DNA from: a virus
Virus record (IMG/VR): IMGVR_UViG_3300033121_002167
Coordinates: 64,001-81,612 of that record
Reading direction: 5' to 3' (one strand)
DNA: 17,612 nt
The notes below the pieces were generated by a model. The model saw only the letters and a program-made list of their open reading frames with translations, was not told where the DNA came from and did no database searches. Made by a program: the position numbers and the translations under genes. This document shows, in pieces, positions 1,739-15,564 of the stretch (its first letter is position 1; every line of letters starts with the position of its first letter).

Positions 1739-2113
1739 TCACGAGATGGGCGTAGTAACGATATCTTTGTACGCAGTATCGGCGTAGGATGCGTACTCTT
1801 TGTCAAGCTCTGTCACTTGATCTATGTCGTGCGTTATGAGACGAACATTGACAGAATCACCTACTACGGTGATGTTAGCATTGTGACCCACTTCTTCTTC
1901 GTACTCAAGCAACGCGTAGAGGAACGGGTTGCGATCTTCTTTCCTCTTGAACGTGTATGTCTTCGTGATCGATCCATCATCGCACTTCTCCCAGCGATTC
2001 ATCGCAACGAGAGGTGCATCAGGTTCACGAGCAGAGATAGGAAGCTTGCCGAACGTCATGGGACGATCAGCCATTTTCATGAACTGCTCGTGAAGCTTTT
2101 GTAGCTGTTTCAT
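1739..2113 (-). CDS. Hypothetical protein, 124 aa.
   Basis: The ATG at 2113-2111 overlaps the TGA of the upstream homing-endonuclease-like gene in an ATGA arrangement. Confidence 0.55.
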   Translation of the reverse strand: MKQLQKLHEQFMKMADRPMTFGKLPISAREPDAPLVAMNRWEKCDDGSITKTYTFKRKEDRNPFLYALLEYEEEVGHNANITVVGDSVNVRLITHDIDQVTELDKEYASYADTAYKDIVTTPIS

Positions 2114-2973
2114 ATGATGTTAAACAAATCCGGATTAAGTCGACCATTTTTCAAAATATTCATACTCTGTAGTTCAGATCTTGACCAAATTACAGAATTG
2201 GGATAATTCATGTGAAACCAATCCCATTTTTGTTTTGCTGATGGCGTCCACATACCTTTTATTTCAACATACGTGTCTGTATACGGACCATCTTTTATGT
2301 AAAGATCAATGATGTACATTGATCTAGATCTTTTTGAAGTTGTCAAAATTTGTGTTTCAAACGCAATTTGCCAATCAAAATCATAACGGCATTTATTAAG
2401 CCAAAGCAACGTTGCATATTCATAACCAGACTGGGATAGCAACCGCTCATTCGTTTTCCAATGAAATATAACGGGTTGATTTTGAATTGTAGAAATAGCT
2501 TTTTTCCGTATCTGTGTAGATTGCATAGGACTGTCAACACCATACCTTCTACGATTAGTAAGTCTAGCTTTTTCTTGCACAACTTTACTTTGAAAAGGAT
2601 TGCTGACTCCGTAGCGTTCCTGACATGTTTGTTTAACACGTTCTTTTACAAGATTTGTACGTTGTGGAAATTCTGTCCCATATTTCTGCAAAGAAGTGCT
2701 TTTACTAGTTTCTTTTACAGATTCTGCTTGAAATGGATTATCAACACCATATTTTTCTTGAAAATTCTTATTCTTTTTCAAAAACAAAACACCACCTGAT
2801 TTTTGTGCCAAATTAGCGCAGTGCAAACTACAAAAATGTTCAGATTTTTTTGCTTGTGATGGAAATTTTTCAACTATTTCACCACAAGTATCACACTTAA
2901 CAACACAAACAATCTTAAATTGTCGTCCATACTTTTTAGGGTTTGGAATTATTCGTGATGACTCAATTAGCAT
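2110..2973 (-). CDS. Putative free-standing homing-endonuclease-like protein, 287 aa. It has an N-terminal zinc ribbon (CDTCGEIV...HFCSLHC), four imperfect ~25-aa repeats carrying a (K/R)YGV(D/S)NPFQ core, and a C-terminal PD-(D/E)xK-like motif (IIDLYIKD...TYVEIKG).
   Basis: The gene is sharply AT-rich relative to its flanks. It has an ATG start with no ribosome-binding site, as is common for phage homing-endonuclease genes, and is ATGA-coupled to the downstream gene. The D-x11-E-x-K pattern embedded in beta-strand-like hydrophobic context fits a PD-(D/E)xK nuclease, and the basic repeats fit DNA-binding modules. The family assignment is not certain. Confidence 0.5.
   Translation of the reverse strand: MLIESSRIIPNPKKYGRQFKIVCVVKCDTCGEIVEKFPSQAKKSEHFCSLHCANLAQKSGGVLFLKKNKNFQEKYGVDNPFQAESVKETSKSTSLQKYGTEFPQRTNLVKERVKQTCQERYGVSNPFQSKVVQEKARLTNRRRYGVDSPMQSTQIRKKAISTIQNQPVIFHWKTNERLLSQSGYEYATLLWLNKCRYDFDWQIAFETQILTTSKRSRSMYIIDLYIKDGPYTDTYVEIKGMWTPSAKQKWDWFHMNYPNSVIWSRSELQSMNILKNGRLNPDLFNII
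2463..2765 (-). repeat. In-frame tandem coding repeats, 4 imperfect copies of ~70-80 nt, encoding the (K/R)YGV(D/S)NPFQ modules of the homing-endonuclease-like protein.
   Basis: Repeated peptide cores KYGVDNPFQ, KYGTEFPQ, RYGVSNPFQ and RYGVDSPMQ. Matching nucleotide repeats occur, for example ttgaaaaggattgctgactccgtagcg around 2590 and ttgaaatggattatcaacaccatattt around 2730. Confidence 0.6.
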
Positions 2974-2982
2974 GTTAATTAA

Positions 2983-3738
2983 CTACAAAATTACAAATCC
3001 ACCAACAATTGCAGACTCAGTAAAACTAGAACCGTGCGTATAAATACGTCTATTTCTATCGATACAACAACTACCACCTTTGTACTTCAGATCGCGCTCG
3101 GTACCAACTCTGTTTGACACAATGACATTTGCTCTTGTGTCTTCAACAAGCTCAACCCAGGCTGAATCTGGGTACCCATAGGCACCGCCCCAGTTCGTCA
3201 GAAGAGCAATCATGTCGACAGAGCCTTTGCTGTAAAATTTCTGCCCAGGCTTGTAAAAAGCGTACGATTCTCTGTAGTGATTCATTGCATCCCTGCAAAC
3301 TAGCGCTCCCAGCCGACCGACTGGCGTCACGACTAGTGCATGAAGGGCTTCTGAGGGCTGCGCCCAAATGTTGTCATTACCCCATAGGTTGCTTTTCTGC
3401 GAATTCCCTGCGAGGCCCGAGGGACCCACGATGGCCGCTGAGTTGTACAGCTTACCTTCATAGAGCTCCGGGTAGCCAAAGACAATGTAGCAGTTGTAAC
3501 GATTGGCAATTGGGATGAACGCTTCTGTCTGATACCCATCACGTTCCTGAGCACACTCCATTGCTTCACGAGGAGATCGCAACGCAAACCCAGAAGTGCA
3601 AAGCTCAGGCAGAACGATGACACGGGCACCTTTCGCCGCGGCTTCGAAAGCTAGTTCAGTAGCAACAGCCAGATTCTTCTGGACGTTGAGCAGCTCTGGG
3701 TTGAACTGCGCCGCGGCAACTATTGCTACGTCGTTCAT
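2983..3738 (-). CDS. Carbon-nitrogen hydrolase (nitrilase superfamily) protein, 251 aa.
   Basis: The catalytic triad context matches the family: VIVLPE (Glu), GKLYNSAAIV (Lys) and GALVCRDAMN (Cys nucleophile). It has the expected alpha-beta-beta-alpha length and the expected N-terminal strand VAIVAAAQFNP. Confidence 0.7.
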   Translation of the reverse strand: MNDVAIVAAAQFNPELLNVQKNLAVATELAFEAAAKGARVIVLPELCTSGFALRSPREAMECAQERDGYQTEAFIPIANRYNCYIVFGYPELYEGKLYNSAAIVGPSGLAGNSQKSNLWGNDNIWAQPSEALHALVVTPVGRLGALVCRDAMNHYRESYAFYKPGQKFYSKGSVDMIALLTNWGGAYGYPDSAWVELVEDTRANVIVSNRVGTERDLKYKGGSCCIDRNRRIYTHGSSFTESAIVGGFVIL

Positions 3739-5407
3739 TGATTCTCTTTCTTGCAGTTAACACTAGCGGAAACGTAGAGTCGCAATCTGCGCAGTAAATT
3801 TCGTCAGCTTCTGCTTGGTGGGTGTTCGCGCCGCCGCAAGTTGGGCAAGGTGCATCACCCGTGTGATGATACTCTTGCTCTTCTGCAGATGGCTCAAGAC
3901 CCTCAAGGCTCTGCATGATGTCAGGGAAAACATCGTACATGTACTCTAGGGCTTCTGGGCTGAATTCACGATCACCAAAAGCATCGTTAAGCGCAGACTC
4001 CAACGAAACTGGGTCTGTGATAGATGATGCACCAGAAGAAACGAGCTGTTCAACTTCGCTCCTAGAGACTAGATCTTCATCAACGGGTGAGCCCATCGTC
4101 TCAAGAACGATCGTCAGCGGACCCTTCTTGATTGTGCGAGTCCGGGAGCGAGATTCACCAACTGGTTCCCAAACTTGGGTGTGATCGCCCGTTGGCTTCT
4201 TAACCTTCAGCTTGCCATCTTCAGGCGAGACAATGCCAGACTCTCCTGGCTTGAACTCTGATGCACCCATCTTGCCAAAGACTTTGCCCTTGTAACGTGT
4301 GACAACAGAAGCACCGTTGTACTTCTGGCCGCCCTTGTAAACCTTGTACGAATCCTTGCTGGCTTTTGGCTCTCTTGGTGCCTTTGGAGCTGCTGGCTCA
4401 CTTGTTGACTCTGCACCCGACTCTTCTGGTGCAGCACTCGTTGGTGCAGTTGGATTGTACAGCTTCTCACCACCACGTGCACGCCTGATCGATTTGTCAA
4501 GAAATTCGCGGAAACCATCTAGATCTCTGACGATGTCTGGATGTGCTTTCATGAGAGCAACGTCAGAAGCCGATAGCTCACCCGAACGGCTCAGCATCTT
4601 GATGTAGTCGTTCATGCTCGACAAGACAATGATCTCAAGATCCTCTGGCGACTTGTCTTGCATGTCAGCAACCCACTGTGCTTTCAGCATTGCCTTGTCA
4701 ACAGCTTGCTTCGCGCCGGCAACTGAAAAACCAAGATCCTTAGCGATATCTTGGAACGATGCACCAGAAACGTCTGACACGGTGTTGAACTTTGCTCTCT
4801 CTGGCACGTCAGACGTCGTGTCTTCCAGCGGATCCTCAACTGGATTCTTCATGATCTTCTTCAGATCTTTCTTCGACTTGTCAAACTTTGACATGTACTC
4901 GCTGCCATGAACGCCAGCTGGGATCTTTGTGACAGGCGGAAGCGGTCCAACGACCGGTCCGAAATTCTTTGGTTTCTTGTCAAATGGCGCTTCAGAAACA
5001 ATGTTAAGTTCTTGCAGCTGCTTGCGAACAGCTAGCCTGATGAGTGATTCAGCTGCTGTGTCTTTTGTAGCGCTCTTTGTGCCCGTCGTCTTCTTGTTTT
5101 TCATCGTATCTTCCTTTTCGTCGGGCACGTCAAGGGCCCCCACTAGCTTTTCATACACGTCAGAAACTTTTTCGTCTGGCAGATCGTCGCTTAGGGCCTT
5201 CACAGCAACTTGAAATTCAGCTTTGTTGTTTGGCTTGTAGTTCGGATTGCTAGGATCAGTAAGTATTGCTGACTGATCAACAACTGGGTTGACATCAACA
5301 GGATCATCCACCTCTTCAAGGCAAACTTGCCCGAACTTCTTGTTATCAAGAAGCTCTGATACAAGCTCGCGCAATGCTGTCCTGGTGACAGTGATCTTTT
5401 GTGCCAT
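3656..5407 (-). CDS. Large hypothetical protein, 583 aa. It is acidic and Lys-rich, with a C-terminal CxxC...CxxC zinc ribbon (CPTCGG...CADCD) and a possible HTH-like segment (SFQDIAKDLGFSVAGAKQAVDKAMLKAQ).
   Basis: ATG at 5407-5405 with AAGGG about 6 nt upstream. Its own frame is closed 12 codons upstream. Its last ~27 codons overlap the C-N hydrolase start out of frame. Confidence 0.65.
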   Translation of the reverse strand: MAQKITVTRTALRELVSELLDNKKFGQVCLEEVDDPVDVNPVVDQSAILTDPSNPNYKPNNKAEFQVAVKALSDDLPDEKVSDVYEKLVGALDVPDEKEDTMKNKKTTGTKSATKDTAAESLIRLAVRKQLQELNIVSEAPFDKKPKNFGPVVGPLPPVTKIPAGVHGSEYMSKFDKSKKDLKKIMKNPVEDPLEDTTSDVPERAKFNTVSDVSGASFQDIAKDLGFSVAGAKQAVDKAMLKAQWVADMQDKSPEDLEIIVLSSMNDYIKMLSRSGELSASDVALMKAHPDIVRDLDGFREFLDKSIRRARGGEKLYNPTAPTSAAPEESGAESTSEPAAPKAPREPKASKDSYKVYKGGQKYNGASVVTRYKGKVFGKMGASEFKPGESGIVSPEDGKLKVKKPTGDHTQVWEPVGESRSRTRTIKKGPLTIVLETMGSPVDEDLVSRSEVEQLVSSGASSITDPVSLESALNDAFGDREFSPEALEYMYDVFPDIMQSLEGLEPSAEEQEYHHTGDAPCPTCGGANTHQAEADEIYCADCDSTFPLVLTARKRINERRSNSCRGAVQPRAAQRPEESGCCY

Positions 5408-5730
5408 AATTCGCCCTTGGGAGCTTCTGCTTGCGAGATGTTAGGATTGCCAAGCTTCGCGTCCGTCCACTTCCTACCGAAGTAAAGAGCAAGGATCGGA
5501 GAGAAGTAGCTGGCGCATGCAGCAACATCGAATGGACGGACATGAATGGGACCAAGCGTCTCAAACATGGAGAGCACGTAAGCCAACGTTGTAACCCAAA
5601 ACGATACGAAGACAAGAGTGACAGTGACGCTTCCGTAACCACGACTGTCACGAATCCAAATTCTTGATGGCGAGACTTCACTAGGATCATTAGATGGTGG
5701 CAAATTTTCATTTGCTGTATTGTCAGACAT
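5200..5730 (-). CDS. Small membrane protein with two predicted transmembrane helices (VTVTLVFVSFWVTTLAYVLSMF and FDVAACASYFSPILALYFG).
   Basis: I place the start at the ATG at 5730-5728 (MSDNTANENL...), which has GAGG 7-8 nt upstream. The track start at 5742 is a second in-frame ATG. The last ~70 codons run out of frame across the start of the 583-aa gene and look like overprinted, non-native sequence, so the true C-terminus is uncertain. Confidence 0.45.
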   Translation of the reverse strand: MSDNTANENLPPSNDPSEVSPSRIWIRDSRGYGSVTVTLVFVSFWVTTLAYVLSMFETLGPIHVRPFDVAACASYFSPILALYFGRKWTDAKLGNPNISQAEAPKGELWHKRSLSPGQHCASLYQSFLITRSSGKFALKRWMILLMSTQLLISQQYLLILAIRTTSQTTKLNFKLL

Positions 5731-6514
5731 GTTCAACCTCATTATTTTCAGATATTTCTTGTCGATGTTTTTTCCACCACAATTTCATTGTTTCGCTATG
5801 TGATTTCCGAAAATCAACATTTTCCCAACGTTCGCAAGCTGATTTTCGTCTCTGCTCAGCTAGTTCTGATTTTTCATATGATCGTTTAACGCCGGCACTA
5901 ATTCGCTTTCGAACATTTTCATCTTGACGTGATTTTTTAGACGCCTCCGTCAAATGAAGCAAGTGTTCAGATGAAACACGTCGACCACTCAATTTTCTAG
6001 AAATACGTTCGCGAACTTCAGGAGTTCGTGAAGCTTTGCTTGAAGCACTCAATTTTTGACGCGTTTGTTTTGAAACAACACGGTTACTTGCAACATCAGA
6101 AAGATGTTGACGAACACCTGGTTTGTTCATACCAATACGGGTACGTTCAGAAATAATTTTGCGAATTTCGCTACTCGGATTTGAAATTCCTTCGCCCCCA
6201 ATCGTTTTGTTACATCTGATGTCATCTAGCGACAAACGAAACGAAGGATTGAATGTATCAAGTTCTTTTATCAGATAAATTTCATAATCAAAAGCTTGAT
6301 TTTCGTCCAGTGTTTCAAAAACAATTTCTCTTCTCAATCCCAAATGATGAGAAACAAATTTGTGATGCTTGTTACGACGTTTGTTTTTAACACGAGAAGA
6401 ATTTCCTTTTCCAACATAAAACGCGCGAGGTTCAATTTCAGTTGTGTAATCGACATACACATACCACTTAGACTGAACCTCAGTTGGATCAGCGGCTTTC
6501 TTCTCTTCTTCCAT
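5723..6514 (-). CDS. GIY-YIG homing endonuclease with C-terminal NUMOD3-like repeats (Seg-like, free-standing), about 264 aa.
   Basis: KWYVYVDYTTEIEPRAFYVGKG gives GIY-x10-YIG. The conserved Arg/His (RVKNKRRNKHH), Glu (FDYEIYLIKEL) and Asn (TFNP) are present. At least five repeats of the NUMOD3 type occur (SEIRKIISERT, TRQKLSASS, PEVRERISRKLSG, ENVRKRISAGVKRS, SHSETMKLWWKKH). The gene is strongly AT-rich. The track ORF starts at a GTG at 6628, giving a spurious Cys/Trp-rich extension. The real start is most likely the ATG at 6514-6512, which has GAGG 9 nt upstream. Confidence 0.85.
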   Translation of the reverse strand: MEEEKKAADPTEVQSKWYVYVDYTTEIEPRAFYVGKGNSSRVKNKRRNKHHKFVSHHLGLRREIVFETLDENQAFDYEIYLIKELDTFNPSFRLSLDDIRCNKTIGGEGISNPSSEIRKIISERTRIGMNKPGVRQHLSDVASNRVVSKQTRQKLSASSKASRTPEVRERISRKLSGRRVSSEHLLHLTEASKKSRQDENVRKRISAGVKRSYEKSELAEQRRKSACERWENVDFRKSHSETMKLWWKKHRQEISENNEVEHV

Positions 6515-6549
6515 GTCGACAACCTCTGGTCCTAAATAGGCTGTACAGA
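5723..6549 (-). mobile_element. AT-rich homing-endonuclease island inserted between a membrane-protein gene and the coiled-coil/secreted protein gene.
   Basis: Composition drops to AT-rich exactly over the endonuclease ORF, with GC-normal flanks. Confidence 0.55.
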
Positions 6550-7044
6550 TCATTTGGTCGCATGCGATAGAGCAAAAACGGTGAGCACGGTGAAAACGGC
6601 GCCGCCAGCAAAACCACCAGCAGCCCACAGCATGGGATTGCTAGAGCTAGATGATTGCTTTCGAATCTCTTCGTTTAGCGCAGCAATCTCTTTTTCTTTT
6701 GCAACGATTGATGCACTTAGGATCTTCTTCTCAGCGTCAGTCGTCGCTTGAAGTTCTACGAGCTTGAACTGCGACTGTGCGGCAGCTTCAGCTTTCGCCT
6801 TGTCAACTTCGATCTTCACTTGATCTTTGGAAGAATTTAGCTGCACGATGATGCTTGCAACAGCTTTTGGCGATAGCAAAACACCGGTGTAAGGTGCTGG
6901 CTCACCCTTTTTCATAGGAGTCGTCACAGCACCAGGATCTGGTTCAGCAGATGGAACTGCTGGCACAGTCAACCCTTCGCATCGACCAGGGATTGCTGAA
7001 AAGAAGAACGTCAGAAACGTTACTAGCGTGATGAACTTTTTCAC
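6550..7044 (-). CDS. Secreted or membrane-anchored coiled-coil protein, 164 aa. It has an N-terminal signal-like hydrophobic segment (KKFITLVTFLTFFFSAIPGRC), a central coiled coil and a C-terminal transmembrane helix (MLWAAGGFAGGAVFTVLTVFAL). It may be a spanin-like lysis component.
   Basis: The start is a GTG at 7044-7042 with GGTGG 3 nt upstream, overlapping the TGA of the upstream gene as GTGA. There is no in-frame ATG until far downstream. The topology resembles unimolecular or outer-membrane spanins, but the lipobox is not canonical (PGRC). Confidence 0.5.
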   Translation of the reverse strand: MKKFITLVTFLTFFFSAIPGRCEGLTVPAVPSAEPDPGAVTTPMKKGEPAPYTGVLLSPKAVASIIVQLNSSKDQVKIEVDKAKAEAAAQSQFKLVELQATTDAEKKILSASIVAKEKEIAALNEEIRKQSSSSSNPMLWAAGGFAGGAVFTVLTVFALSHATK

Positions 7045-8039: not shown

Positions 8040-8598
8040 GAACTAAGACTGCTCCTCCTCCGCCGACGCCTCCATCACCTGCTCGATCAGCTGGCGGTGC
8101 AGTGAATTCATCTTCCATTTCATCCCTTGACTTACCGATCTCCATGCCATGCTCGTTGCGAAGCTGCTCTTTGAATGAATCAGCAACTGACTCATCGTAA
8201 TTCTTCGACAAGAAGTTTGACGCCCTACGCAAGATCGTATTTCTAACTTCTAGCAAGGAGTCGTAGTTGTCTATCAACCTGACAACGCCGTTGACAAAAG
8301 AGCCCACGTCGATGTCTTCAACAGTAAGCTTCTTTGGTTCATCGCTAGAATCATCACCCTTGTCGTCATCTTCACCAGCTTCAACGATTCGACGCACAGT
8401 CATTCGCCAATCGCGACCTTCGGTCTTTGCGGACTTTGCTTCTTTCTCATAGTCATTCAAGTAACGATCGACCTGAGAGTCTAGTGAATCTTCTCCCGGC
8501 TCTTCTGCTGGTGGCGCCGGCGCTTCGCCTTCTTCTCTGAGAATCTCTTCCCTTAGAACACGCCGAAGATCACCCAAGCGAACCTTAAAAGTCTTCAT
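8029..8598 (-). CDS. Hypothetical acidic protein, 189 aa (Glu/Asp-rich, Gly-run near the C-terminus).
   Basis: The ATG at 8598-8596 overlaps the TGA of the SOD-like gene in an ATGA arrangement. Confidence 0.55.
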   Translation of the reverse strand: MKTFKVRLGDLRRVLREEILREEGEAPAPPAEEPGEDSLDSQVDRYLNDYEKEAKSAKTEGRDWRMTVRRIVEAGEDDDKGDDSSDEPKKLTVEDIDVGSFVNGVVRLIDNYDSLLEVRNTILRRASNFLSKNYDESVADSFKEQLRNEHGMEIGKSRDEMEDEFTAPPADRAGDGGVGGGGAVLVHEI

Positions 8599-9311
8599 GA
8601 CTTCACCGCCACGCCGATTGCTTCAGCTCTCTTAAAACGATCTTCGCAAACTTCCCAATTGATCTCTCTCATCTGAGCGATCAAGTAGCTCTTCTTGTCG
8701 GTCAAGTAGTCTCTAGCGTATGCATGCTCCCACATGTCGACAACGATCACTGGGTAGAAGCCTAGTGGGATATCTCCACTGTGGTGGCTGATTGGAACGT
8801 TGATGTACTTCTTCAAGAAAGTGTGATATCCGCAAACAGCCCATCCATTTCCAGCAGCCATGGCACATGCGATGAAGTCACGTTGCCAATCTTCGAACGT
8901 TCCGAAGTCTCTCTGCAGCTTGATGTAAGCGATTGAATCCATCACGATCTCAGAATGAGGATCGTAGCAGTTCGCAAAGTACAGCTCGTGAAGCCACACA
9001 GCATTGAGGTTGTACGCTTCATCAAGCTTCAATGACCTGAAGTCACTGTGCTTTGAATTTGAAGCGCCCCTGTCAGCAGTGTCAAGCTGCGCTGAAACAT
9101 TGTTCAACGTATCAACGTACTCACGGTAAAGAGTTGTGTGCGCTTCTTTTGTCTTCTGCGAAACCATCTCGGAGACTTGCTTGAACGGCTTCGGTTCTGC
9201 AACGTAAGACTCGTTGATCTTTCCAACTTCTTTCACAGCAGCCGAGCGCGATAGCGCATCTCTGATCGTCTTATCAAGGTCTAGACCTTCTAGTATGTTC
9301 TTTTTGCTCAT
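8595..9311 (-). CDS. Fe/Mn superoxide dismutase-like protein, 238 aa, with a ~40-aa N-terminal extension.
   Basis: The C-terminal signature DMWEHAYARDY corresponds to the D-x-W-E-H-A-Y-Y motif that carries the Asp and His metal ligands. Other matches are GNGWAVCGY (GSGWxWL-like), NAVWLHELYF (NAAQxWNHtFyW-like, with His) and HTTLYREYVDTLNN (HHxxYVxxLN-like). The ATG has AAGGA 9 nt upstream. Confidence 0.65.
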   Translation of the reverse strand: MSKKNILEGLDLDKTIRDALSRSAAVKEVGKINESYVAEPKPFKQVSEMVSQKTKEAHTTLYREYVDTLNNVSAQLDTADRGASNSKHSDFRSLKLDEAYNLNAVWLHELYFANCYDPHSEIVMDSIAYIKLQRDFGTFEDWQRDFIACAMAAGNGWAVCGYHTFLKKYINVPISHHSGDIPLGFYPVIVVDMWEHAYARDYLTDKKSYLIAQMREINWEVCEDRFKRAEAIGVAVKS

Positions 9312-9609
9312 GATCTTTTCCTTGTAAGCTTAGCTCGTAATTCTTTTCAAGTTCTTCTGCATCAATCAGGAATTTTTCACCCTCTGGCGTCCTGAGTATG
9401 CAATCGTTAGGACCGACTGAATCCACTGTGTAGCGAATTCCACTGTTCTTGTGAAGAACTTTCAGCTCTGGAGCGATGATCATCTTCTCTTCTCCTTTGC
9501 CGATCTTTGCAGTCATCGCAACGTCGACGGTCTCCGTTAGAGACGCAACACGTGAGTCCCACTCTTCACGGAAGACTTCTATGATGTCCTTATCAGTAAG
9601 TGCTCTCAT
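9274..9609 (-). CDS. Hypothetical protein, 111 aa.
   Basis: The ATG at 9609-9607 overlaps the TGA of the dCMP deaminase gene (ATGA). It overlaps the next gene by 38 nt. Confidence 0.5.
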   Translation of the reverse strand: MRALTDKDIIEVFREEWDSRVASLTETVDVAMTAKIGKGEEKMIIAPELKVLHKNSGIRYTVDSVGPNDCILRTPEGEKFLIDAEELEKNYELSLQGKDHEQKEHTRRSRP

Positions 9610-10043
9610 GTTCTCGATGTAAGTATTGTGTCCGATGTTCTCATGACTTCAATACCAACTGATTGCAGCAAGACAAGACCTGACGAATCCCTGTACTGGA
9701 TGTCATACACGACCCTAGAGATTCCAGCGTTGATGATCATCTTGGCACACATCCGACACGGTGAATGAGTCACGTACATGTGCTTCTTCTTCGGAAAGTT
9801 ATAATCGAGCTTGATTATAGCGTTAGCCTCAGCATGCAAGAAACCGCTAAGACCAGGTTCGCTCGATTCTTTCTCGTGAGGTCCACCCTTGTAGTTCCCG
9901 TTGTACCCAATCGAGAGCATCTGCGTGTTATCGTCAGAAACGACGATCGCTCCCACTTTGAGAGCATCGTCGTACGATCTAAGAGAGATCGTCTTTGCTA
10001 CTGACATCCACGTTTCAGGCCACGGAACAGCGTTGTTGGTCAT
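9606..10043 (-). CDS. cd: Deoxycytidylate (dCMP) deaminase, zinc-dependent cytidine/dCMP deaminase family.
   Basis: HAEANAI (the zinc His plus catalytic Glu) and SPCRMCAKMIINAGI (the PCxxC zinc ligands). The track start at 10076 is TTG. I chose the ATG at 10043-10041, which overlaps the thymidine kinase TGA as ATGA (MTNNAVPWPETW...). Confidence 0.85.
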   Translation of the reverse strand: MTNNAVPWPETWMSVAKTISLRSYDDALKVGAIVVSDDNTQMLSIGYNGNYKGGPHEKESSEPGLSGFLHAEANAIIKLDYNFPKKKHMYVTHSPCRMCAKMIINAGISRVVYDIQYRDSSGLVLLQSVGIEVMRTSDTILTSRT

Positions 10044-10609
10044 GTTAGCACTATGAAAGGATGACATCGCAAGCAACGCGGCTCGTATAGCTCGTGCCCG
10101 CCAACTTCAAGCAACGTTTCATCTTCGCTCTTCTTGTACGTAAAATGAGCATCTTGCGAGCAGATCGTGCACACTGCTGAGCACTTCTCTATTGACGTTG
10201 CCCAAGGCAACATCTTTGTCACTTCATCGAACGGTTTGCCGTTGAATGCAGTGTCAAGCGTTGACACTATGATGTTGTATCCGTTCCTGTACAAGAACGT
10301 CAAAGCATCAGCAACGCCGTTGATCATGAAAGCTTCATCTACTGCGATGATGCTAATGTCGTTGTTCTGCTCTTCAAGAACTTTCGCAAGGATACCTTCT
10401 GCGTTATTGACAGTGACTGCATCGTGACGCCAACCGCCGTGCGTCACGATCTGAGACGTAGAGTAGCGATCATCTATCGCAGGCTTGAAAACTAGAGCGT
10501 TTCTCTTCTGGTACTTGCAACGCTCAAGCTCCATCAACAATCGAGATGATTTTGATGACCACATGGGTCCGACGTACATCACGAATGTTGGATTAGCTTG
10601 CTTGCTCAT
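10040..10609 (-). CDS. tk: Thymidine kinase (type II, Tdk-like), 189 aa.
   Basis: P-loop YVGPMWSSKSS, Walker B/acceptor region AVDEAFMI, and the C-terminal zinc motif CSAVCTICS...CLRCH. ATG start. Confidence 0.9.
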   Translation of the reverse strand: MSKQANPTFVMYVGPMWSSKSSRLLMELERCKYQKRNALVFKPAIDDRYSTSQIVTHGGWRHDAVTVNNAEGILAKVLEEQNNDISIIAVDEAFMINGVADALTFLYRNGYNIIVSTLDTAFNGKPFDEVTKMLPWATSIEKCSAVCTICSQDAHFTYKKSEDETLLEVGGHELYEPRCLRCHPFIVLT

Positions 10610-10628
10610 GATCGCTACTCTAACCGGT

Positions 10629-11186
10629 CTAGAGCGCTAGTAATCCGACAACGACAAGCGTGTCGAACGGAGGAGCGCACCCGGCATTCTCTTCTGCGGC
10701 AGCCTTGAGAGAATCCAGAACTCTCTTCTTCGCCGGCCCCACGCCCTTCGAAGCCTTCAATGCACCCAACGCTGCAGGGGATCCAGAGCCAACAGAAGCG
10801 TAACCACGAGCACTCTCAACGAGCTGGAAGTTTCCCTCGAGCTCGTGCAGCTCACCCCTGTATGCAATGAGTAGCGCACCGTGGAAGTAGTGCTGACCAC
10901 GATGCTCCTCAGTACAATCAAACTTCTTCAAACCTTCGCGGATCGCAGGTACCCACTTGCTGACAAGATAGTCCTTCGCAGAACCGCTCTCGTGCGGCGG
11001 GAATTCGATGCCATGCTTGATAGCATCCATGACCTTAGGCAACCCGCAAACACCAACGCCGATGCCGTTCTTCAAGAAGATCTTCGGATGCTTCAAGAGA
11101 ACCCTGTCTAGACCGCCACCAGTTGCTGCACGATCACCACCGAGCCAAACGTTCTTTCCCTCAACGACGCCAACAATAACAGTCAT
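10629..11186 (-). CDS. HslV/proteasome beta-subunit-like N-terminal nucleophile peptidase, 185 aa.
   Basis: It starts MTVIVGVVEGKNVWLGGDRAATGG, compared with HslV [24 protein letters not shown], so Thr is at position 2 and would be the Thr1 nucleophile after Met removal. A Lys in HPKIF sits at the HslV Lys33-like position. The Gly-rich GVGVCG and YASVGSGSPAALGALKA match the HslV GSGG region. There is a strong ribosome-binding site, AAGGAG. Confidence 0.65.
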   Translation of the reverse strand: MTVIVGVVEGKNVWLGGDRAATGGGLDRVLLKHPKIFLKNGIGVGVCGLPKVMDAIKHGIEFPPHESGSAKDYLVSKWVPAIREGLKKFDCTEEHRGQHYFHGALLIAYRGELHELEGNFQLVESARGYASVGSGSPAALGALKASKGVGPAKKRVLDSLKAAAEENAGCAPPFDTLVVVGLLAL

Positions 11187-11362
11187 TTTCCATTCTCCTT
11201 TTCTTCTTTGTAGTTCACTTCAGTCTGCCAGGCTACTTTTATGAGCTCAACCACTTGATCAATGCTCAACCCGAGCATCTCACCGAGCTCAACGACGCTT
11301 CTTACTGCTACCTCGAACATCTTCTCAATCGATGGTAGCTGATCTCCTTTTTGCTTTGCCAT
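11183..11362 (-). CDS. Small hypothetical protein, about 59 aa (MAKQKGDQLPSIEKMFEVAVRSVVELGEMLGLSIDQVVELIKVAWQ...).
   Basis: The ATG at 11362-11360 lies immediately after the TAG of the hydroxymethylase gene. A longer version from the ATG at 11413 would overlap by 50 nt. Weak support. Confidence 0.35.
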   Translation of the reverse strand: MAKQKGDQLPSIEKMFEVAVRSVVELGEMLGLSIDQVVELIKVAWQTEVNYKEEKENGK

Positions 11363-11363
11363 G

Positions 11364-12023
11364 CTATTCAACCAAGTGCCAATGCTTTTGGTATACGTGC
11401 AAAGAACCAGCATGCCAAATCATGGGACCAACTTTGACGCCCAGATCGTGAGCAAGCTGCTTGTGAACGTAGTCTTGCCAGACGCGGTCGTTGCGATATC
11501 CATACAAGACATCGTTCGACCTCATGCGAACGTCAGCAACCAGCTCTCCATTTCTGACGAAGTACTGGACTGAATCAGTACAGATGAAGTCGCTCATCCC
11601 GCTACGGTTGTAATCTTTCCAGATCGAAGGACGCGTGTACACCATCTCTGCGCGGCGGCTTTCTGGAGCTCGACGAAGTTCAGCTAGAACGTTGCTGTAC
11701 TGATCGTGATTCTCAGGGCTCCAGATAAGATAACCATAGTTCGAGTTGATCTCACCGTTAGGTGTAGCGCATGCAACCCAAGCAGCAGGTGCACCGCCAG
11801 GGATATCATGAACGTTAAGAGACATAGACTTGTACCACTCGATCTCCCTAGCTGCGTAGTCCCTGTTCACGGTCCCAAAGATAGCTTCTTCATCCGCAAT
11901 GAACGTTGCACCTATGACCTCAATCATCTTGCAACCTGTTTTGTCGGTCACGTGCTCGCCGGATGCTTTTAGCTCACGGAACCAACTCCGAACATCGCTG
12001 ACTCTATGCTCAATTCGTATCAT
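11364..12023 (-). CDS. Deoxycytidylate 5-hydroxymethylase (T4 gp42-like, thymidylate-synthase fold), 219 aa.
   Basis: Blocks match T4 gp42 as I remember it: DKTGCKMIEVIGATFIADEE, REIEWYKSMSL, GEINSNYGYLIWS, ESRRAEMVYTRPSI, GMSDFICTDSVQYF (Cys nucleophile) and MRSNDVLYGYRNDRVWQDYV. The Asp in the RND motif, where thymidylate synthase has Asn, is the cytosine-specificity determinant. The C-terminal HAGSLHVYQKH matches the TS/CH GDAHIY region. Confidence 0.85.
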   Translation of the reverse strand: MIRIEHRVSDVRSWFRELKASGEHVTDKTGCKMIEVIGATFIADEEAIFGTVNRDYAAREIEWYKSMSLNVHDIPGGAPAAWVACATPNGEINSNYGYLIWSPENHDQYSNVLAELRRAPESRRAEMVYTRPSIWKDYNRSGMSDFICTDSVQYFVRNGELVADVRMRSNDVLYGYRNDRVWQDYVHKQLAHDLGVKVGPMIWHAGSLHVYQKHWHLVE

Positions 12024-12174
12024 TCGTCTTCATCTCCAGGTCCAGCACCTTGTCTTCTAGCGTTTGAATTCTCACCTTCATCTCATTGTGTGCCCTAATG
12101 TCAACGATCGACAGAACGATCGTGAACAGCAACAGCACCCATAGCATGAAGTGGACGTGATGATCTGATTTCAT
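12010..12174 (-). CDS. Unlisted small membrane protein, 54 aa (MKSDHHVHFMLWVLLLFTIVLSIVDIRAHNEMKVRIQTLEDKVLDLEMKTNDTN).
   Basis: It is not in the ORF track because it is under 60 aa. The ATG at 12174-12172 overlaps the epimerase TGA as TGATG. It has one clear transmembrane helix followed by a charged helix. It ends 14 nt inside the hydroxymethylase start and fills an otherwise 150-nt gap in a gapless operon. Confidence 0.45.
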   Translation of the reverse strand: MKSDHHVHFMLWVLLLFTIVLSIVDIRAHNEMKVRIQTLEDKVLDLEMKTNDTN

Positions 12175-13142
12175 CAGACGTTAAGCTTTAGGTTCTTTGC
12201 CCAGTCCCAATTGTTGTCGTACCAATCGCATGTGCGAGCGATACCTTCCCAAACAGGAACTTTTACGCTGTACGCAAGGTAAACTGATGCACCGCTGATG
12301 TTTGCTAGCGTTCGCTTCACATCACCTGCCCGTGTGGGCGCAACGTTGAGCTTGAACCCGCCGTAACGCTTCAGAAGGTAAAGAATGATGTCGTTGTTGG
12401 ATACTTCAGTTCCACATGCTACGTTGAATCGATGCGCTTCAGCAGATGGAAGCTGCGCTGTTGCGGCCTTCATGCATGCATCAACAACGTTGTCAACGTA
12501 ACACAAGTCTCTTGATTGAGAGCCGTCACCATCGAAGCGAAGCGGTTCACCCTTCTTGATAGCCGTCAACCACGCGGCGAGCGCAGTTGCGTACGGAGAA
12601 CCACCCAGCGCGTTGGGTCCAAAGACGTTGAAGAACCTCAAGGAGACAGAATCTAGACCGTAGAACGTCTTGTACAACGTCAAGTAATCTTCGATGATAG
12701 ATTTCTGAAGCGCGTACGGCGACTTGGGATTCTTCTCTTCGCTCTCATGCGTGGGTAGCTTAAGAGCGCCGCCGTACACTGAAGAAGATGAAGCAAAGAC
12801 GAACCGTGTGATGTTTCCTCTGCATGCTTCCAGCAACTTCAGCGTCTTCGTGACGTTTGCATCGTTCGTTTCAAACGGATGCTCCACAGAGTACGAAACT
12901 CTTGGAACAGCAGCAAGATGGATGACAACGTCAAACTCTTTGTCCCTGATCTTCTGAAGAACTGCTTCATCAGAAAAATCACACTTAAATTCACGAATTT
13001 CTCGAAGAGTTGAATCGCTCAAAAATTCTGCGTGCCCATTAGAAAAATCATCAGCACCAGTAACTGTCCAACCAGCAGCTACGCATGCTGCTGTCAAATT
13101 TGAACCAATGAACCCTGCGTAGCCAGTTATGAGGACTTTCAT
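12174..13142 (-). CDS. NAD-dependent nucleotide-sugar epimerase/dehydratase (extended SDR, UDP-glucose 4-epimerase-like), 322 aa.
   Basis: Rossmann motif VLITGYAGFIGSNL, the catalytic YALQK (YxxxK), and the Ser-rich ASSSSVYGG upstream of it. The length and domain order are typical of GalE/WbpP-like enzymes. Confidence 0.85.
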   Translation of the reverse strand: MKVLITGYAGFIGSNLTAACVAAGWTVTGADDFSNGHAEFLSDSTLREIREFKCDFSDEAVLQKIRDKEFDVVIHLAAVPRVSYSVEHPFETNDANVTKTLKLLEACRGNITRFVFASSSSVYGGALKLPTHESEEKNPKSPYALQKSIIEDYLTLYKTFYGLDSVSLRFFNVFGPNALGGSPYATALAAWLTAIKKGEPLRFDGDGSQSRDLCYVDNVVDACMKAATAQLPSAEAHRFNVACGTEVSNNDIILYLLKRYGGFKLNVAPTRAGDVKRTLANISGASVYLAYSVKVPVWEGIARTCDWYDNNWDWAKNLKLNV

Positions 13143-13226: not shown

Positions 13227-13469
13227 TTAAAGCGTCGTCACCTCGTAAGAGCACCGAGCTCTAACAGCATCACGGAGACGTTCACGAAGATCATTCATGT
13301 CGACGGTGTGAGTTCTCAGCTCGCTGAACTCATCGAGCAACTTGCTCAACACGTCTGGTGCATCAGAAAAGTCTGGCGAGCCCATGAAAGGGTGCCCTCC
13401 TGCATCTCGAGCCAGCTTAGAATATTCGAAATAATTGGTCAATGAGATACCGGTATATATTTCCCGCAA
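13227..13469 (-). pseudogene. Remnant of the native 3' end of the glycosyltransferase gene, displaced by the homing-endonuclease cassette.
   Basis: This ORF has a TTG start and a stop codon immediately upstream. Its translation REIYTGISLTNYFEYSKLARDAGGHPFMGSPDFSD...RCSYEVTTL aligns over its full length with the C-terminus of the 446-aa glycosyltransferase (RECTELGCVPLTLNCNEYARLLKLSSFPIYCNPDFSD...RCSYEETTL). The remnant is GC-rich like the host genome, whereas the glycosyltransferase's current 3' end is AT-rich like the endonuclease. Confidence 0.6.
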
Positions 13470-14205
13470 TTATTCCCTTAACTTGGCTAATACGAAGATC
13501 GTATTTCTTGGCAAGATCTTTTTGAGTATACAATCCAGTTTGATAATCACTTCTAAGATCATTTACTGTCGCTCGTAGATGATCATTTCTTTTGATTCTA
13601 GCTGCGGCTATTTTTTGTTTAACTTCAACTCTTTGTTGAACTTCTTTTTGCTTTATGGAAGCTTTCAATCTAAATTCATCACTTCTGAAGATTTCTCGCA
13701 AGTTCTCGATTCGTTGTTTTGCTTTTTCTTCATCACTAGCCCAATTTTTCTTAAGTGATGAAGAAATACGCTGTTTGGTTTCTTCTGTTTGATGACCACG
13801 CAATTTTCTTACTTTGCTTTTCATCTTAAGTCTAAAACTAGGATCCTTCCACAATGCTTTAAATCGATCACTTATCAATTTTTTCTGGTGTGCTGTAATA
13901 CCACGCACGCCCTCGCCACCAGAAGTAAGATTTAGCAACATTACGCCACTTTTCTTAAGAGACGAGATGGTTTCAATTTCGTGTGCGTATGAATCTTCTT
14001 CATTACTAGTGTGATAAACACACTTAAATTCAAACGCGTCTAGACCATAAGTTCGCATGTTCGCATACAAATGACTTCTACCCCTAAATTGACCCGTAGA
14101 ACCAAAATAACGATGTATTCGCCAGCGACAAGCTAGATCATTAGTTTTTCCGACATAAACTTCTGACGTAATCGTATTTGTAATAGTGTATACAAAGAAT
14201 CCCAT
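13417..14205 (-). CDS. GIY-YIG homing endonuclease with NUMOD3 motifs (Seg/I-TevI-like, free-standing), 262 aa.
   Basis: GFFVYTITNTITSEVYVGKT gives GIY-x9-YVG. Also present are RWRIH, YAHEIETISS (Glu) and LLNLTSGG (Asn). NUMOD3-type repeats include HQTEETKQRISSSLKKNW, the consensus GxxHSEETKxKIS. It is strongly AT-rich, has an ATG start and no ribosome-binding site. Confidence 0.9.
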   Translation of the reverse strand: MGFFVYTITNTITSEVYVGKTNDLACRWRIHRYFGSTGQFRGRSHLYANMRTYGLDAFEFKCVYHTSNEEDSYAHEIETISSLKKSGVMLLNLTSGGEGVRGITAHQKKLISDRFKALWKDPSFRLKMKSKVRKLRGHQTEETKQRISSSLKKNWASDEEKAKQRIENLREIFRSDEFRLKASIKQKEVQQRVEVKQKIAAARIKRNDHLRATVNDLRSDYQTGLYTQKDLAKKYDLRISQVKGIIAGNIYRYLIDQLFRIF

Positions 14206-14460
14206 GATCTAACTATAGTGGCACACATACTTTTACAATAGATCCATACGTTTCATCGAACTCAACGTTGTTTCTTCGTATGAACATCTTTGTTGAACGA
14301 CTGTTTTCAGTCTTTCATGTGACTTTTTACAATCATCAGTGCCAACATAATCGATCAGATCGCTAGCTTTATCAACAATGTCAGAAAAATCAGGATTGCA
14401 ATAAATTGGAAATGATGACAATTTAAGCAATCTTGCATATTCATTACAGTTCAATGTCAA
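13417..14460 (-). mobile_element. Homing-endonuclease cassette: the endonuclease gene plus a co-transferred AT-rich replacement 3' end of the glycosyltransferase gene.
   Basis: A contiguous AT-rich block of about 1 kb covers the glycosyltransferase's last ~75 codons and the endonuclease gene. The displaced GC-rich native 3' end lies just downstream at 13227..13469. Confidence 0.6.
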
Positions 14461-15564
14461 TGGAACACATCCCAATTCTGTGCATTCTCTAGCAGCCGTT
14501 CCGCCGTACGTGTCCTGATCGTACAACCCAACAGATATCTCAGCTCTGGAAGCGATGTACTTGAATTCATCCCTGTTAAGCGGGCCAGAGACAAGAGACA
14601 TGTAGCCGTGACGGCCGCAGCGATCTTGCAAGCTAGAATTAGAGATTTTCTGGCTGGGATTTCCAGCTATGACAATAAAGTCTTGGCGACGATTGTGAAG
14701 CTTTGGCAAGATGTCAAACATGAACTTGCCGCAGTTCGTGTAGTCGCTAGACACCCCTGCTTCACCGATACGGTTCGGGACAAAGATGATCTTCTTGCCA
14801 GCTGATTGCAGCTTCTCGACCAGGTTGACATCAAACCTAAGATTGTCGAAATTGACCGGCGATGTGATCTCTTCTCGAGAGTACCCATCATCCCACGGTG
14901 AAGACTTTTCGAGGATCTTTTGGACAACTTCATCTCTGTAAAGCTTCCTGGCTTCAACTTCAAACTCTGCCAACGCAGATTCACACTGCCAGAAGTTCCA
15001 ATCGGCTTTCATCGCTGCTTCGCATTGACCGAGCCACAGCGATGCTTCAGCTGGAAACTTTGGACATGATGGCACATCCACGAAGTGGGAATGTACGAAA
15101 AACTTGGGTTGGTATCCACCAACAACATGGAACATCGCCTTGAAAGCTCTTAGATGCATTGGATCGTTGATGTAGACTGCATCCCACTTGGGTGCTCGGC
15201 TCAACTTCTGCATCCCGAGATTTAGACCGACAGCTAGACCCGTCCAGTCAAAATCATAACGAGTCACAAGAGCATTTCCGATGATGTTGTGCTCAAAGAA
15301 CGCTAGACGATTGTCGCCGTCTGCGCCGTAACGCTCCCAAAGATCTGGGTATACATCCCAAGGATCAGTTACAACTTGTCTCTTTCTGCCGTCATCACCA
15401 AGCTGTGGGATCATCACTGTGATGTGCAACTCTGGGTTCAGCTGAAGCATCACCCTTACGCGACCCATGACCATCTGAAAGCCCGAATCTGCTTCCAAGA
15501 TGAAGTTTCCCTTCGTGTCATAATTTGACAACTGTGTCTCTATCAAAAGCCGTTTTTGTCCCAT
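14233..15564 (-). CDS. GT-B fold glycosyltransferase (GT4-like C-terminal domain), about 443 aa. It is a candidate DNA hmC glycosyltransferase.
   Basis: The C-terminal region YDQDTYGGTAARECTELGCVPL matches the GT-B/GT4 E-x7-E nucleotide-sugar-binding region (…EAMACGCPVI). The track start at 15573 is TTG. The real ATG is at 15564-15562 (MGQKRLL...) with AAGGA 11 nt upstream. The last ~75 codons are AT-rich and have been allele-replaced. Confidence 0.6.
   Translation of the reverse strand: MGQKRLLIETQLSNYDTKGNFILEADSGFQMVMGRVRVMLQLNPELHITVMIPQLGDDGRKRQVVTDPWDVYPDLWERYGADGDNRLAFFEHNIIGNALVTRYDFDWTGLAVGLNLGMQKLSRAPKWDAVYINDPMHLRAFKAMFHVVGGYQPKFFVHSHFVDVPSCPKFPAEASLWLGQCEAAMKADWNFWQCESALAEFEVEARKLYRDEVVQKILEKSSPWDDGYSREEITSPVNFDNLRFDVNLVEKLQSAGKKIIFVPNRIGEAGVSSDYTNCGKFMFDILPKLHNRRQDFIVIAGNPSQKISNSSLQDRCGRHGYMSLVSGPLNRDEFKYIASRAEISVGLYDQDTYGGTAARECTELGCVPLTLNCNEYARLLKLSSFPIYCNPDFSDIVDKASDLIDYVGTDDCKKSHERLKTVVQQRCSYEETTLSSMKRMDLL

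Follow-up and report, generated by a model that had tools for sequence, protein, structure and literature searches.

The gene at positions 2110 to 2973 of the window (the whole stretch of DNA that was analysed, 17,612 nucleotides) very probably encodes a free-standing homing endonuclease that is active now or was until recently, as judged from comparisons of its sequence with those of its relatives. The mobility of the gene, an insertion between two metabolic genes of a large phage, is well supported, and the gene is a clean, if not unprecedented, example of a mobile gene in a catalogued protein family, DUF7487.

Gene and surroundings

The endonuclease gene lies between two genes of the same orientation:

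2110..2973, minus strand: predicted free-standing homing-endonuclease gene, 287 amino acids, ATG start (ORF listing and Pfam DUF7487 match)
1739..2113, minus strand: downstream flanking gene, pterin-4a-carbinolamine dehydratase (Pfam Pterin_4a, E = 6e-13)
2983..3738, minus strand: upstream flanking gene, carbon-nitrogen hydrolase (Pfam CN_hydrolase, E = 9e-26)
2974..2982, minus strand: 9-nt spacer (TTAATTAAC) from the hydrolase stop codon to the endonuclease ATG, with no Shine-Dalgarno motif in the sequence

The surroundings are a nucleotide-metabolism gene cluster. The GC content of the endonuclease gene is 0.337, compared with 0.47–0.50 in the neighbouring genes and about 0.49 in the flanks, which bears out an earlier description of the gene as an AT-rich island. 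The ATGA coupling of its stop codon to the start of the next gene, also described earlier, is present at 2110–2113, where the TGA overlaps the ATG. This overlap is inherited, as the same ATGA joins the two flanking genes in a relative with an empty site. The reported absence of a ribosome-binding site is true but not distinctive, because a Shine-Dalgarno-like motif is missing from about half of the genes surveyed in the window; we therefore rejected the missing site as a regulatory feature of this gene. Scans for a promoter or terminator of the gene's own gave hits at chance level only. A megablast search with the whole window against 50,697 phage records found no match, and the phage therefore has no close sequenced relative among those records.

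Domain architecture and family

The features that the preliminary description had read from this ORF (a zinc module, repeats, a C-terminal core and an unusual composition) were confirmed overall. They map as follows:

2818..2895, minus strand: putative FCS-like zinc module, residues C27–C52 (CDTCG-x17-CSLHC; coordinates by translation)
2512..2787, minus strand: four tandem 23-residue KYGV-type repeats, residues 63–154 (period, DNA-level repeats and family logo)
2113..2478, minus strand: C-terminal PD-(D/E)xK nuclease domain, residues 166–287
2419–2421, 2305–2307, 2263–2265 and 2257–2259, minus strand: catalytic codons for E185, D223, E237 and K239, respectively

The C-terminal domain has the alpha/beta core fold of the PD-(D/E)xK superfamily. 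Two predicted beta-strands (residues 217–226 and 234–238) carry its motif YIIDLYIK…YVEIKG, and E185, D223, E237 and K239 are invariant in 25 homologues as well as in 131 representatives drawn from 507 related clusters. The PD-(D/E)xK-like core proposed earlier is thus present, with an intact, family-invariant catalytic tetrad. Because these four residues are invariant in the 131 representatives, a DNA-binding element without nuclease activity, which had been offered as another possibility, is unlikely. Consistent with the earlier reading, no GIY-YIG, HNH or LAGLIDADG family of Pfam matched the protein at E values up to 1.

A profile of the domain built from 22 sequences matched T7 endonuclease I (E = 2.6e-6), with SGLE, PDF and VETKG aligned to E185, D223 and E237–K239, respectively. 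The catalytic residues of T7 endonuclease I, which we take to be E20, D55, E65 and K67, align to E185, D223, E237 and K239. This match came from the domain profile only; a single-sequence search of PDB sequences with the endonuclease found nothing at E values up to 10. Three of the 131 relatives match Pfam Phage_endo_I, and the query alone gave no match to it at E values up to 1. In fold searches the best structural match of the domain was TnsA, the endonuclease subunit of Tn7. The nuclease domain is related to T7 endonuclease I by sequence and to TnsA by fold.

The structural match to TnsA would also suit a catalytically dead DNA-binding protein, or a protein that plays the role of TnsA within a Tn7-like transposon. 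We consider this extremely improbable. The catalytic tetrad is intact and invariant, no terminal inverted repeats or transposon-like ends were found flanking the insert, and no transposase or TnsB-like gene adjoins it, the neighbours being the hydrolase and the pterin dehydratase. Furthermore, the insertion replaces homologous sequence and shows no target duplication. TnsA itself shares 13–16% sequence identity with the protein and differs in its N-terminal architecture, and the endonuclease, unlike TnsA, has no TnsB/TnsC partner.

Upstream of the nuclease domain, the cysteines of the zinc module are spaced C27-x2-C30-x17-C48-x3-C52. About 20 homologues have the same pattern, CDxC…(H)FCSxxC, ahead of their repeats. 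The zinc ribbon claimed earlier is present as a putative CxxC…CxxxC module, although its match to Pfam zf-FCS_1 is weak (E = 0.13) and residues 1–61 are modelled by AlphaFold with low confidence.

The YG of the four repeats falls at residues 75, 98, 121 and 144, with a period of exactly 23 amino acids. The four (K/R)YGV(D/S)NPFQ repeats of the preliminary description therefore stand, whereas the 25-residue period given for them does not. The array also contains repeats at the DNA level, spaced 69 and 138 nt apart. In the protein, any two of the four repeats share 4–10 of their 23 residues, and repeat 2 (KYGTEFPQR) is degenerate. Each repeat is predicted to form a 15-residue helix and a YGVxNPxQ loop (pLDDT 89–96). 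The repeats are not a chance pattern, because 590 copies occur in 127 of the 224 proteins that we collected, with 2–10 copies per protein. Their consensus is [IV]KEKxKQT[CN]LE[KR]YGV[ED]NPxQSxE, and positions 5, 7, 9, 19 and 22 are the least conserved in the logo of the 590 repeats. The module is fused to at least three types of nuclease. These results agree with the earlier suggestion of a modular array, in that the repeats act as a shuffled module, variable in copy number, on different nucleases. The module is not novel, however, as F-LimVIII and other proteins with the annotation of a Hef-like homing endonuclease already contain it.

From its basic composition and its association with nucleases, the array is presumed to bind DNA. 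Fold searches gave no informative solved-structure match for the array, and the nuclease domain dominated the results. One speculative and unlikely possibility is that the array is a modular DNA reader, with a set number of base pairs read by each repeat, specificity determined by a few variable positions and a target length that scales with copy number (2–10). In the course of evolution, such a reader would have been combined with three or more different nuclease domains, both in phages and in giant viruses that infect eukaryotes. If so, the array would be a new example of a natural, programmable DNA-binding scaffold, on a par with the repeats of TAL effectors. As an uncharacterised DNA-binding candidate of variable copy number, the array is worth structural study.

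The whole endonuclease matches Pfam DUF7487 (PF24308) with 76.8 bits (E = 3.1e-21; gathering threshold, 27 bits), residues 64–248 aligning to profile positions 23–205 of 220. It also matches PHROG 3339 and PHROG 12131, both of which are annotated 'homing endonuclease'. Thus, the proposal that the gene represents a new family was not upheld. Canonical members of DUF7487 have the same collinear order, in which the tandem 23-residue KYGV repeats precede an E…D…ExK nuclease. Alignment by hhalign of the nuclease-domain profile (A3) with the canonical DUF7487 profile (A5; QGYEP…PDIYIP…IEVKS) gave 95% probability and an E value of 3.7e-8, with E, D and ExK aligned. The nuclease domain nevertheless belongs to a divergent branch (HWKT…SGYE…IDLY…VEIKG), which BLAST does not connect with canonical members such as P0003 and P0028. 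The four repeats of the protein compare with longer KYGV arrays in canonical P0003, P0004, P0007, P0022 and P0028, and with as few as two repeats in other members. An NCBIfam search with the endonuclease returned no meaningful match.

The nuclease domain recurs in at least 500 clusters (at 50% identity), and giant viruses contain proteins of similar structure. Homologues sit between conserved phage genes, among them baseplate genes and an SbcCD-like gene near the terminase gene; an AT-rich island is a further setting in which they occur. Huge phages have up to 16 matching places per genome. No mention of DUF7487 was found in the searchable literature, nor was a cleavage activity, target site or homing event found there for any of its members.

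Empty, occupied and decayed forms of the locus

Comparison with related phage contigs defined three further features:

2983..3073, minus strand: foreign, recoded 3' end (last 91 nt) of the carbon-nitrogen hydrolase gene (comparison with L002)
2110..2118, minus strand: right junction, ATCATATGA (alignments)
2165..2751, minus strand: segment deleted in decayed copies, 587 bp between 4-nt TATG microhomologies (alignment and end-points)

The endonuclease gene is present in the window and in contigs L010–L014. The exact protein itself led to no more than a 1-kb contig, and the informative genomic contexts are those of other proteins in its cluster. In four related phage contigs (L002, L006, L007 and L008) the two flanking genes are directly adjacent with no insert between them. 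The comparison with relatives lacking the insertion thus yielded four empty sites, which is the opposite of a gene conserved in all relatives and fits the free-standing mobile element envisaged in the preliminary description. Only L002 is a near-identical genome, with flanks 99–100% identical to the window; L006, L007 and L008 are 61–72% identical at the protein level.

The boundaries of the insert are sharp. Downstream of it, the window and L002 have zero differences in 986 nt. Upstream, the first 665 nt of the hydrolase gene are 99.2% identical to L002, whereas the last 91 nt are 56% identical and have a GC content of 0.344 versus 0.511. Relative to L002, this tail carries 21 synonymous and 7 non-synonymous codon changes and a different stop codon. 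It is more similar to the tail of the distant L007 (62 of 93 positions) than to that of L002 (only 52 of 93), and it is present in all examined contigs that have the gene or a remnant of it. The tail probably marks a co-conversion tract, an altered target site or both. The target probably lies within a region of approximately 100 bp, either in the 3' end of the hydrolase gene or at the junction that follows. At the other end of the insert, the final codons of the endonuclease gene and its stop codon (ATCATATGA) match exactly those that end the hydrolase gene in the relative with the empty site, and the ATGA overlap of the ancestor was thereby preserved. A 16-nt direct repeat (14 of 16 identical) lies near both ends of the cassette, at 2165–2180 and 3078–3093. 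We set it aside as a signal, as we estimate that 1.4 kb of sequence would contain roughly one match of this quality by chance.

Five contigs carry exactly the same cassette (100% identity), among them contigs with clearly different backgrounds. When L010 is compared with L013, 76 SNPs fall in the 2.9 kb upstream and 65 in the 3.1 kb downstream (about 2.3%), whereas the 964 nt of tail and gene contain zero SNPs. Counted from the ATG, the first SNPs on either side are at -117 and +917, which places the conversion boundaries within 17 and 53 nt of the cassette ends. An identical cassette in diverged backgrounds could also have arisen from ordinary phage recombination or a selective sweep. Indeed, the gene might be a passenger that was gained once by illegitimate or ordinary homologous recombination and whose own nuclease has no role in its spread. 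In the mosaic genomes of phages, cassettes can move by recombination alone; moreover, the right junction shares just 9 nt (ATCATATGA) with the ancestral sequence and so resembles a microhomology join. Nuclease genes at boundaries of genetic exchange are the subject of PMC10448857. We nevertheless regard a passenger as very unlikely, given the identity of the cassette across diverged backgrounds with boundaries so close to its ends, the intact architecture of a site-directed nuclease conserved family-wide, and the repeated occurrence of family members between conserved phage genes, with many copies per genome. Movement by homing is the reading that we prefer.

Decayed copies occur at the same locus. 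Remnants of the 587-bp deletion were found in at least five contigs (L015–L019) from five samples; the neighbouring genes are intact in these contigs, and the remnant proteins P0079 and P0082 are frameshifted and 83 amino acids long. Between the two intact alleles there are 10 synonymous and 8 non-synonymous changes, and the resulting pN/pS of about 0.2 indicates some purifying selection. Such selection, together with the location of the gene in a nucleotide-metabolism cluster and the sequence homology of its core to T7 endonuclease I, which extends to matches of three family members to Phage_endo_I, would also be expected of a nuclease that benefits the phage rather than itself, such as a T7-endonuclease-I-like resolvase, a degrader of host DNA or a weapon against competing phages. 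It is hard, however, to reconcile a beneficial role with the loss of the gene by a frameshifting deletion in contigs from five samples, with its lack in the closest relative and three more distant ones, or with its foreign base composition and foreign flank. A PADLOC search matched no known defence-system model, and the weapon version is not truly distinct from homing, as homing endonucleases themselves cut the genomes of competitors. On balance, we think it improbable that the gene is kept for a benefit to the phage, and a homing endonuclease remains our preferred explanation.

Proposed homing cycle and known systems

The homing endonuclease gene would be co-transcribed with its neighbours, its translation beginning 9 nt past the upstream stop codon. 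During co-infection with a related phage lacking the gene, the N-terminal modules may bind at or close to the hydrolase 3' end or the hydrolase–pterin dehydratase junction, and the nuclease domain would cut the DNA by means of K239 and a metal ion coordinated by E185, D223 and E237. Recombinational repair templated on the gene-bearing genome would then copy the gene and the 91-nt flank into the recipient. Carrier genomes would be protected because the insert splits the site and 40 of the 91 positions are recoded. After it has spread, the gene may decay by deletion.

Among solved proteins, T7 endonuclease I (gene 3) is the nearest in the sequence-profile comparison, but it has neither the zinc module nor the repeats. 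It is a stand-alone, structure-specific junction resolvase that forms an intertwined dimer and recognises DNA structure, not sequence. We found no description in the literature of a homing endonuclease resembling it.

The N-terminal half of the protein has a different counterpart. F-LimVIII of Dickeya phage LIMEstone1 has the FCS-like zinc module and KYGV repeats in common with it (40.6% identity over residues 27–150), and Hef-type enzymes, including F-LimVIII and Hef of phage U5, are also free-standing genes between conserved phage genes. Hef has been described as an endonuclease that cleaves nrdB (PMC2988022), and enzymes of this type have been assigned to the Vsr-like (EDxHD) catalytic family (PMC3239194). 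For the nuclease region of F-LimVIII, the matches to DUF559 (E = 4.7e-4), MTES_1575 (E = 1.2e-4) and Vsr (E = 0.058) are weak and fall short of the thresholds. By contrast, profile searches with the endonuclease described here found no Vsr, DUF559 or MTES_1575 match, and it carries E-D-ExK instead.

PD-(D/E)xK is one of six recognised homing-endonuclease families (PMC6083498; PMC2677866). Its characterised member I-Ssp6803I, which belongs to the same nuclease superfamily as the protein described here, is encoded by an intron in a tRNA gene (PMC2677866); it was absent from the sequence and fold matches of the endonuclease. The lifestyle of the gene is that of the T4 seg/mob and I-TevI-type enzymes, which are free-standing between conserved phage genes, combine nuclease and DNA-binding halves and co-convert flanking markers (PMC2988022; PMC3239194). 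Those enzymes have GIY-YIG or HNH catalytic domains, with NUMOD modules for DNA binding in the I-TevI type, whereas here the nuclease is C-terminal, so that the order is reversed, and the repeat unit is different. A Pfam search matched none of the NUMOD families to the endonuclease.

In near-identical natural genomes, this one locus is seen empty, occupied by an intact gene to which a foreign flank is linked, and reduced to decayed remnants. These three stages are strong natural-history evidence that members of the DUF7487 family act as homing endonucleases. As DUF7487 is listed as being of unknown function, the locus suggests a function for an unannotated family.

Insertion polymorphism and its linked foreign flank

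The strongest part of the evidence concerns mobility. The preliminary description proposed that the endonuclease gene is a mobile insertion, and we indeed found relatives without it at this locus (phage contigs L002, L006, L007 and L008). In the 140-kb viral contig L002, the carbon-nitrogen hydrolase gene abuts the pterin-4a dehydratase gene, the two overlapping as ATGA with nothing inserted between them; the same adjacency occurs in three relatives that are more distant, L006 and L007 (72% protein identity) and L008 (61%). The net insertion relative to L002 is 873 bp. Identity to L002 is 99.2% across the opening 665 nt of the hydrolase gene and complete across 986 nt downstream of the insert, but falls to 56% in the closing 91 nt of the hydrolase gene (GC 0.344 versus 0.511). 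This foreign tail carries 21 synonymous and 7 non-synonymous codon changes relative to L002, as well as a different stop codon. It is nearer to the tail of the distant contig L007 (62/93) than to that of L002 (52/93), and it therefore arrived from another lineage together with the endonuclease gene. The final nine nucleotides of the endonuclease gene (ATCATATGA) are those of the original hydrolase gene end, and the overlap with the downstream gene was thereby kept in its ancestral form.

In gene-less L002, an 8-bp palindrome, ATGATCAT, followed directly by CATATG, lies at 6735–6760, where the insert of the carriers sits. The palindrome is gone from the carriers and is not statistically remarkable; it could be linked to recognition by a dimeric nuclease.

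The reading frame itself (2110..2973, minus strand; 287 aa, starting with ATG) matches the first description, and so does the AT-rich island: GC content is 0.337 in the gene compared with 0.47–0.50 in neighbouring genes, and in a sliding-window profile the drop to 0.30–0.38 is confined to the gene. The proposed coupling was also found, the stop codon sharing an ATGA with the start codon of the downstream gene. A ribosome-binding site is missing, as claimed, but this is not distinctive, as roughly one gene in two in the window has none. A search for a separate promoter, terminator or terminal repeats for the gene found none; thus, co-transcription with its neighbours is the simplest assumption.

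Intact alleles and decay products

A second allele of the endonuclease gene occupies the same site in five contigs from five samples (L010–L014) and is identical in all five. Between L010 and L013, the 2.9 kb of upstream flank contains 76 single-nucleotide polymorphisms (SNPs) and the 3.1 kb of downstream flank 65, with none in the tail and gene (964 nt together); the closest ones lie at −117 and +917 relative to the endonuclease ATG. The two intact alleles are separated by 10 synonymous and 8 non-synonymous differences (pN/pS of approximately 0.2), a sign of some purifying selection on intact copies.

A remnant is found at the same locus in five further contigs from five samples (L015–L019). 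The remnant-protein look-up read seven contigs, and the deletion was aligned in three (L015–L017), in which 587 bp are deleted between TATG microhomologies. Repeats and nuclease domain are both lost through this deletion, which also causes a frameshift, and the foreign tail stays. The homing-endonuclease life cycle predicts that one population will contain empty sites, intact genes and decayed copies, as is seen here.

Other members of the family show similar behaviour: the gene for P0002 lies in an AT-rich island between baseplate genes, that for P0010 adjoins an SbcCD-like gene near a terminase gene, and huge phages hold up to 16 matching places each. Passive acquisition of the gene through recombination is improbable, being a poor fit to both the tight conversion tract and this behaviour of the wider family.

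A 16-nt direct repeat (window 2165–2180 and 3078–3093, 14/16 identical) has its outer copy 5 nt beyond the foreign tract on the left and its inner copy close to the 3′ terminus of the endonuclease gene. The inner copy starts precisely where one edge of the 587-bp deletion falls; by our own estimate, about one such match would be expected by chance.

Two other genes in the window had been called GIY-YIG endonucleases:

5723-6514, minus strand, first gene called GIY-YIG, within an AT-rich island (~5550–6600)
13417-14205, minus strand, second endonuclease-like gene, in an AT-rich island (~13350–14550), Pfam GIY-YIG

For the second, the label holds (Pfam GIY-YIG, E = 4.3e-7; GC 0.359). For the first, listed from a GTG at 6628 and with a likely start at M39 (263 aa), it was unconfirmed, with no Pfam match at E up to 0.01. 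L011 has a 263-aa gene in the equivalent slot between 164-aa and 583-aa genes, matched by position and size alone; the slot is empty of such a gene in L002, L010 and L012. On this equivalence by position, the 5723–6514 gene is another presence/absence insertion.

The 583-aa reading frame (3656..5407) overlaps the start of the hydrolase frame by 83 nt in a different frame (3656–3738). The Pfam match of the long hydrolase form starts at residue 7; automatic gene calls in related contigs place the start later (192 or 210 aa), and in distant L007 the upstream gene stops before the hydrolase start. At positions 8595–13142 lies a gene cluster for nucleotide and redox metabolism, of the sort usual in large phages (Fe/Mn superoxide dismutase, dCMP deaminase, thymidine kinase, thymidylate synthase and NAD-dependent epimerase). 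A megablast search of the window against the phage record collection gave no match.

Domain anatomy and conserved catalytic residues

The suggestion of a new family falls to database matches: the endonuclease matches Pfam DUF7487, a family of unknown function (76.8 bits, threshold 27), as well as PHROG 3339 and 12131, which carry the annotation 'homing endonuclease'. The family thus has existing catalogue entries, and the window protein belongs to a divergent nuclease sub-branch. A literature search found no paper naming DUF7487 or giving biochemistry for it.

The AlphaFold model, built on an alignment of 25 sequences (mean pLDDT 82; >90 across most of residues 70–287), has a C-terminal alpha/beta domain. 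A profile of 22 such domains found T7 endonuclease I at E = 2.6e-6, aligning its SGLE, PDF and VETKG with E185, D223 and E237-x-K239; the T7 catalytic residues are E20, D55, E65 and K67. An exhaustive search with the 122-residue nuclease domain matched 507 clusters at E up to 0.001, and in nearly all of the best 150 the domain lies at or near the C terminus. W172, E185, D223, E237, K239, G240 and F253 are invariant across 131 aligned relatives, and the canonical DUF7487 nuclease domain is homologous to that of the window protein (hhalign 95%). Because of the T7 endonuclease I match, the invariant catalytic residues and this homology, the alternative of a DNA-binding protein without nuclease activity is very unlikely. 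It is likewise exceedingly doubtful that the protein is catalytically dead and only binds DNA, or that it belongs to an element like Tn7: the active site is conserved, and there are neither ends nor partner genes. A nuclease that benefits the phage, either resolvase-like or directed at host DNA, would agree with the T7 endonuclease I similarity; the absence of the gene from the closest relatives and the frequency of the inactivating deletion make it unlikely.

Towards the N terminus, cysteines C27, C30, C48 and C52 form the pattern CDTCG-x17-CSLHC, and a CDxC…(H)FCSxxC arrangement also precedes the repeats in about 20 homologues. The Pfam match for this zinc module is weak (zf-FCS_1, E = 0.13), and residues 1–61 of the model are unreliable. 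The four repeats hold up, with a period of exactly 23 residues rather than the 25 proposed; YG dipeptides lie at 75, 98, 121 and 144, and copy two is degenerate. Among 224 fetched proteins, 127 contain 590 KYGV-type repeats (2 to 10 copies apiece; consensus [IV]KEKxKQT[CN]LE[KR]YGV[ED]NPxQSxE). In the model of the window protein, each repeat forms a 15-residue helix and a YGVxNPxQ loop.

We propose that the zinc module and basic repeats bind DNA, with a target probably within a stretch of about 100 bp covering the junction and the hydrolase 3′ end. In co-infection, a gene-less genome would be cut, and repair with the carrier genome as template would copy in the gene and its flank; carriers would be immune because their site is split and recoded.

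Module exchange across the wider family

The nuclease domain combines with differing N-terminal modules in the 131 relatives: KYGV repeats (83 pass for DUF7487), zinc ribbons (DUF4379 in 9, CapR repeats in 3) and an unannotated repeat of ~45–50 aa, TYxxxxxxxxFIDxxYGEWW…GHxHPxR. The closest relatives of the nuclease domain (P0010, P0011, P0015 and P0020 in alignment A1; 51–58% identity) bear 2–3 copies of this last module, with no KYGV repeats and no Pfam match; it is probably a further DNA-binding repeat yet to be catalogued.

The KYGV array, in turn, is fused to other nucleases, for example F-LimVIII of Dickeya phage LIMEstone1 (40.6% identity across residues 27–150 of the window protein), with further variants in P0078 and P0008. 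F-LimVIII was placed among 'Hef-like' enzymes (PMC3296691); Hef has been described as an nrdB-cutting endonuclease (PMC2988022), and the Vsr-like family includes Hef-type enzymes (PMC3239194). The window protein has a presumed DNA-binding module in common with Hef-like enzymes, whereas its nuclease, unlike theirs, is a canonical PD-(D/E)xK domain.

Folds similar to the model are found in giant eukaryotic viruses (BFVD matches in Klosneuvirus, Marseillevirus and invertebrate iridescent virus 30), annotated 'Zinc-ribbon-containing protein', 'Restriction endonuclease' and 'Csr/MutH/archaeal HJR family nuclease'. The window gene is best read as a new member of a kind already known, the free-standing homing endonucleases of phages that pair a PD-(D/E)xK-type nuclease with a modular region for binding DNA, and judging from the fold matches, its family may not be confined to phages.
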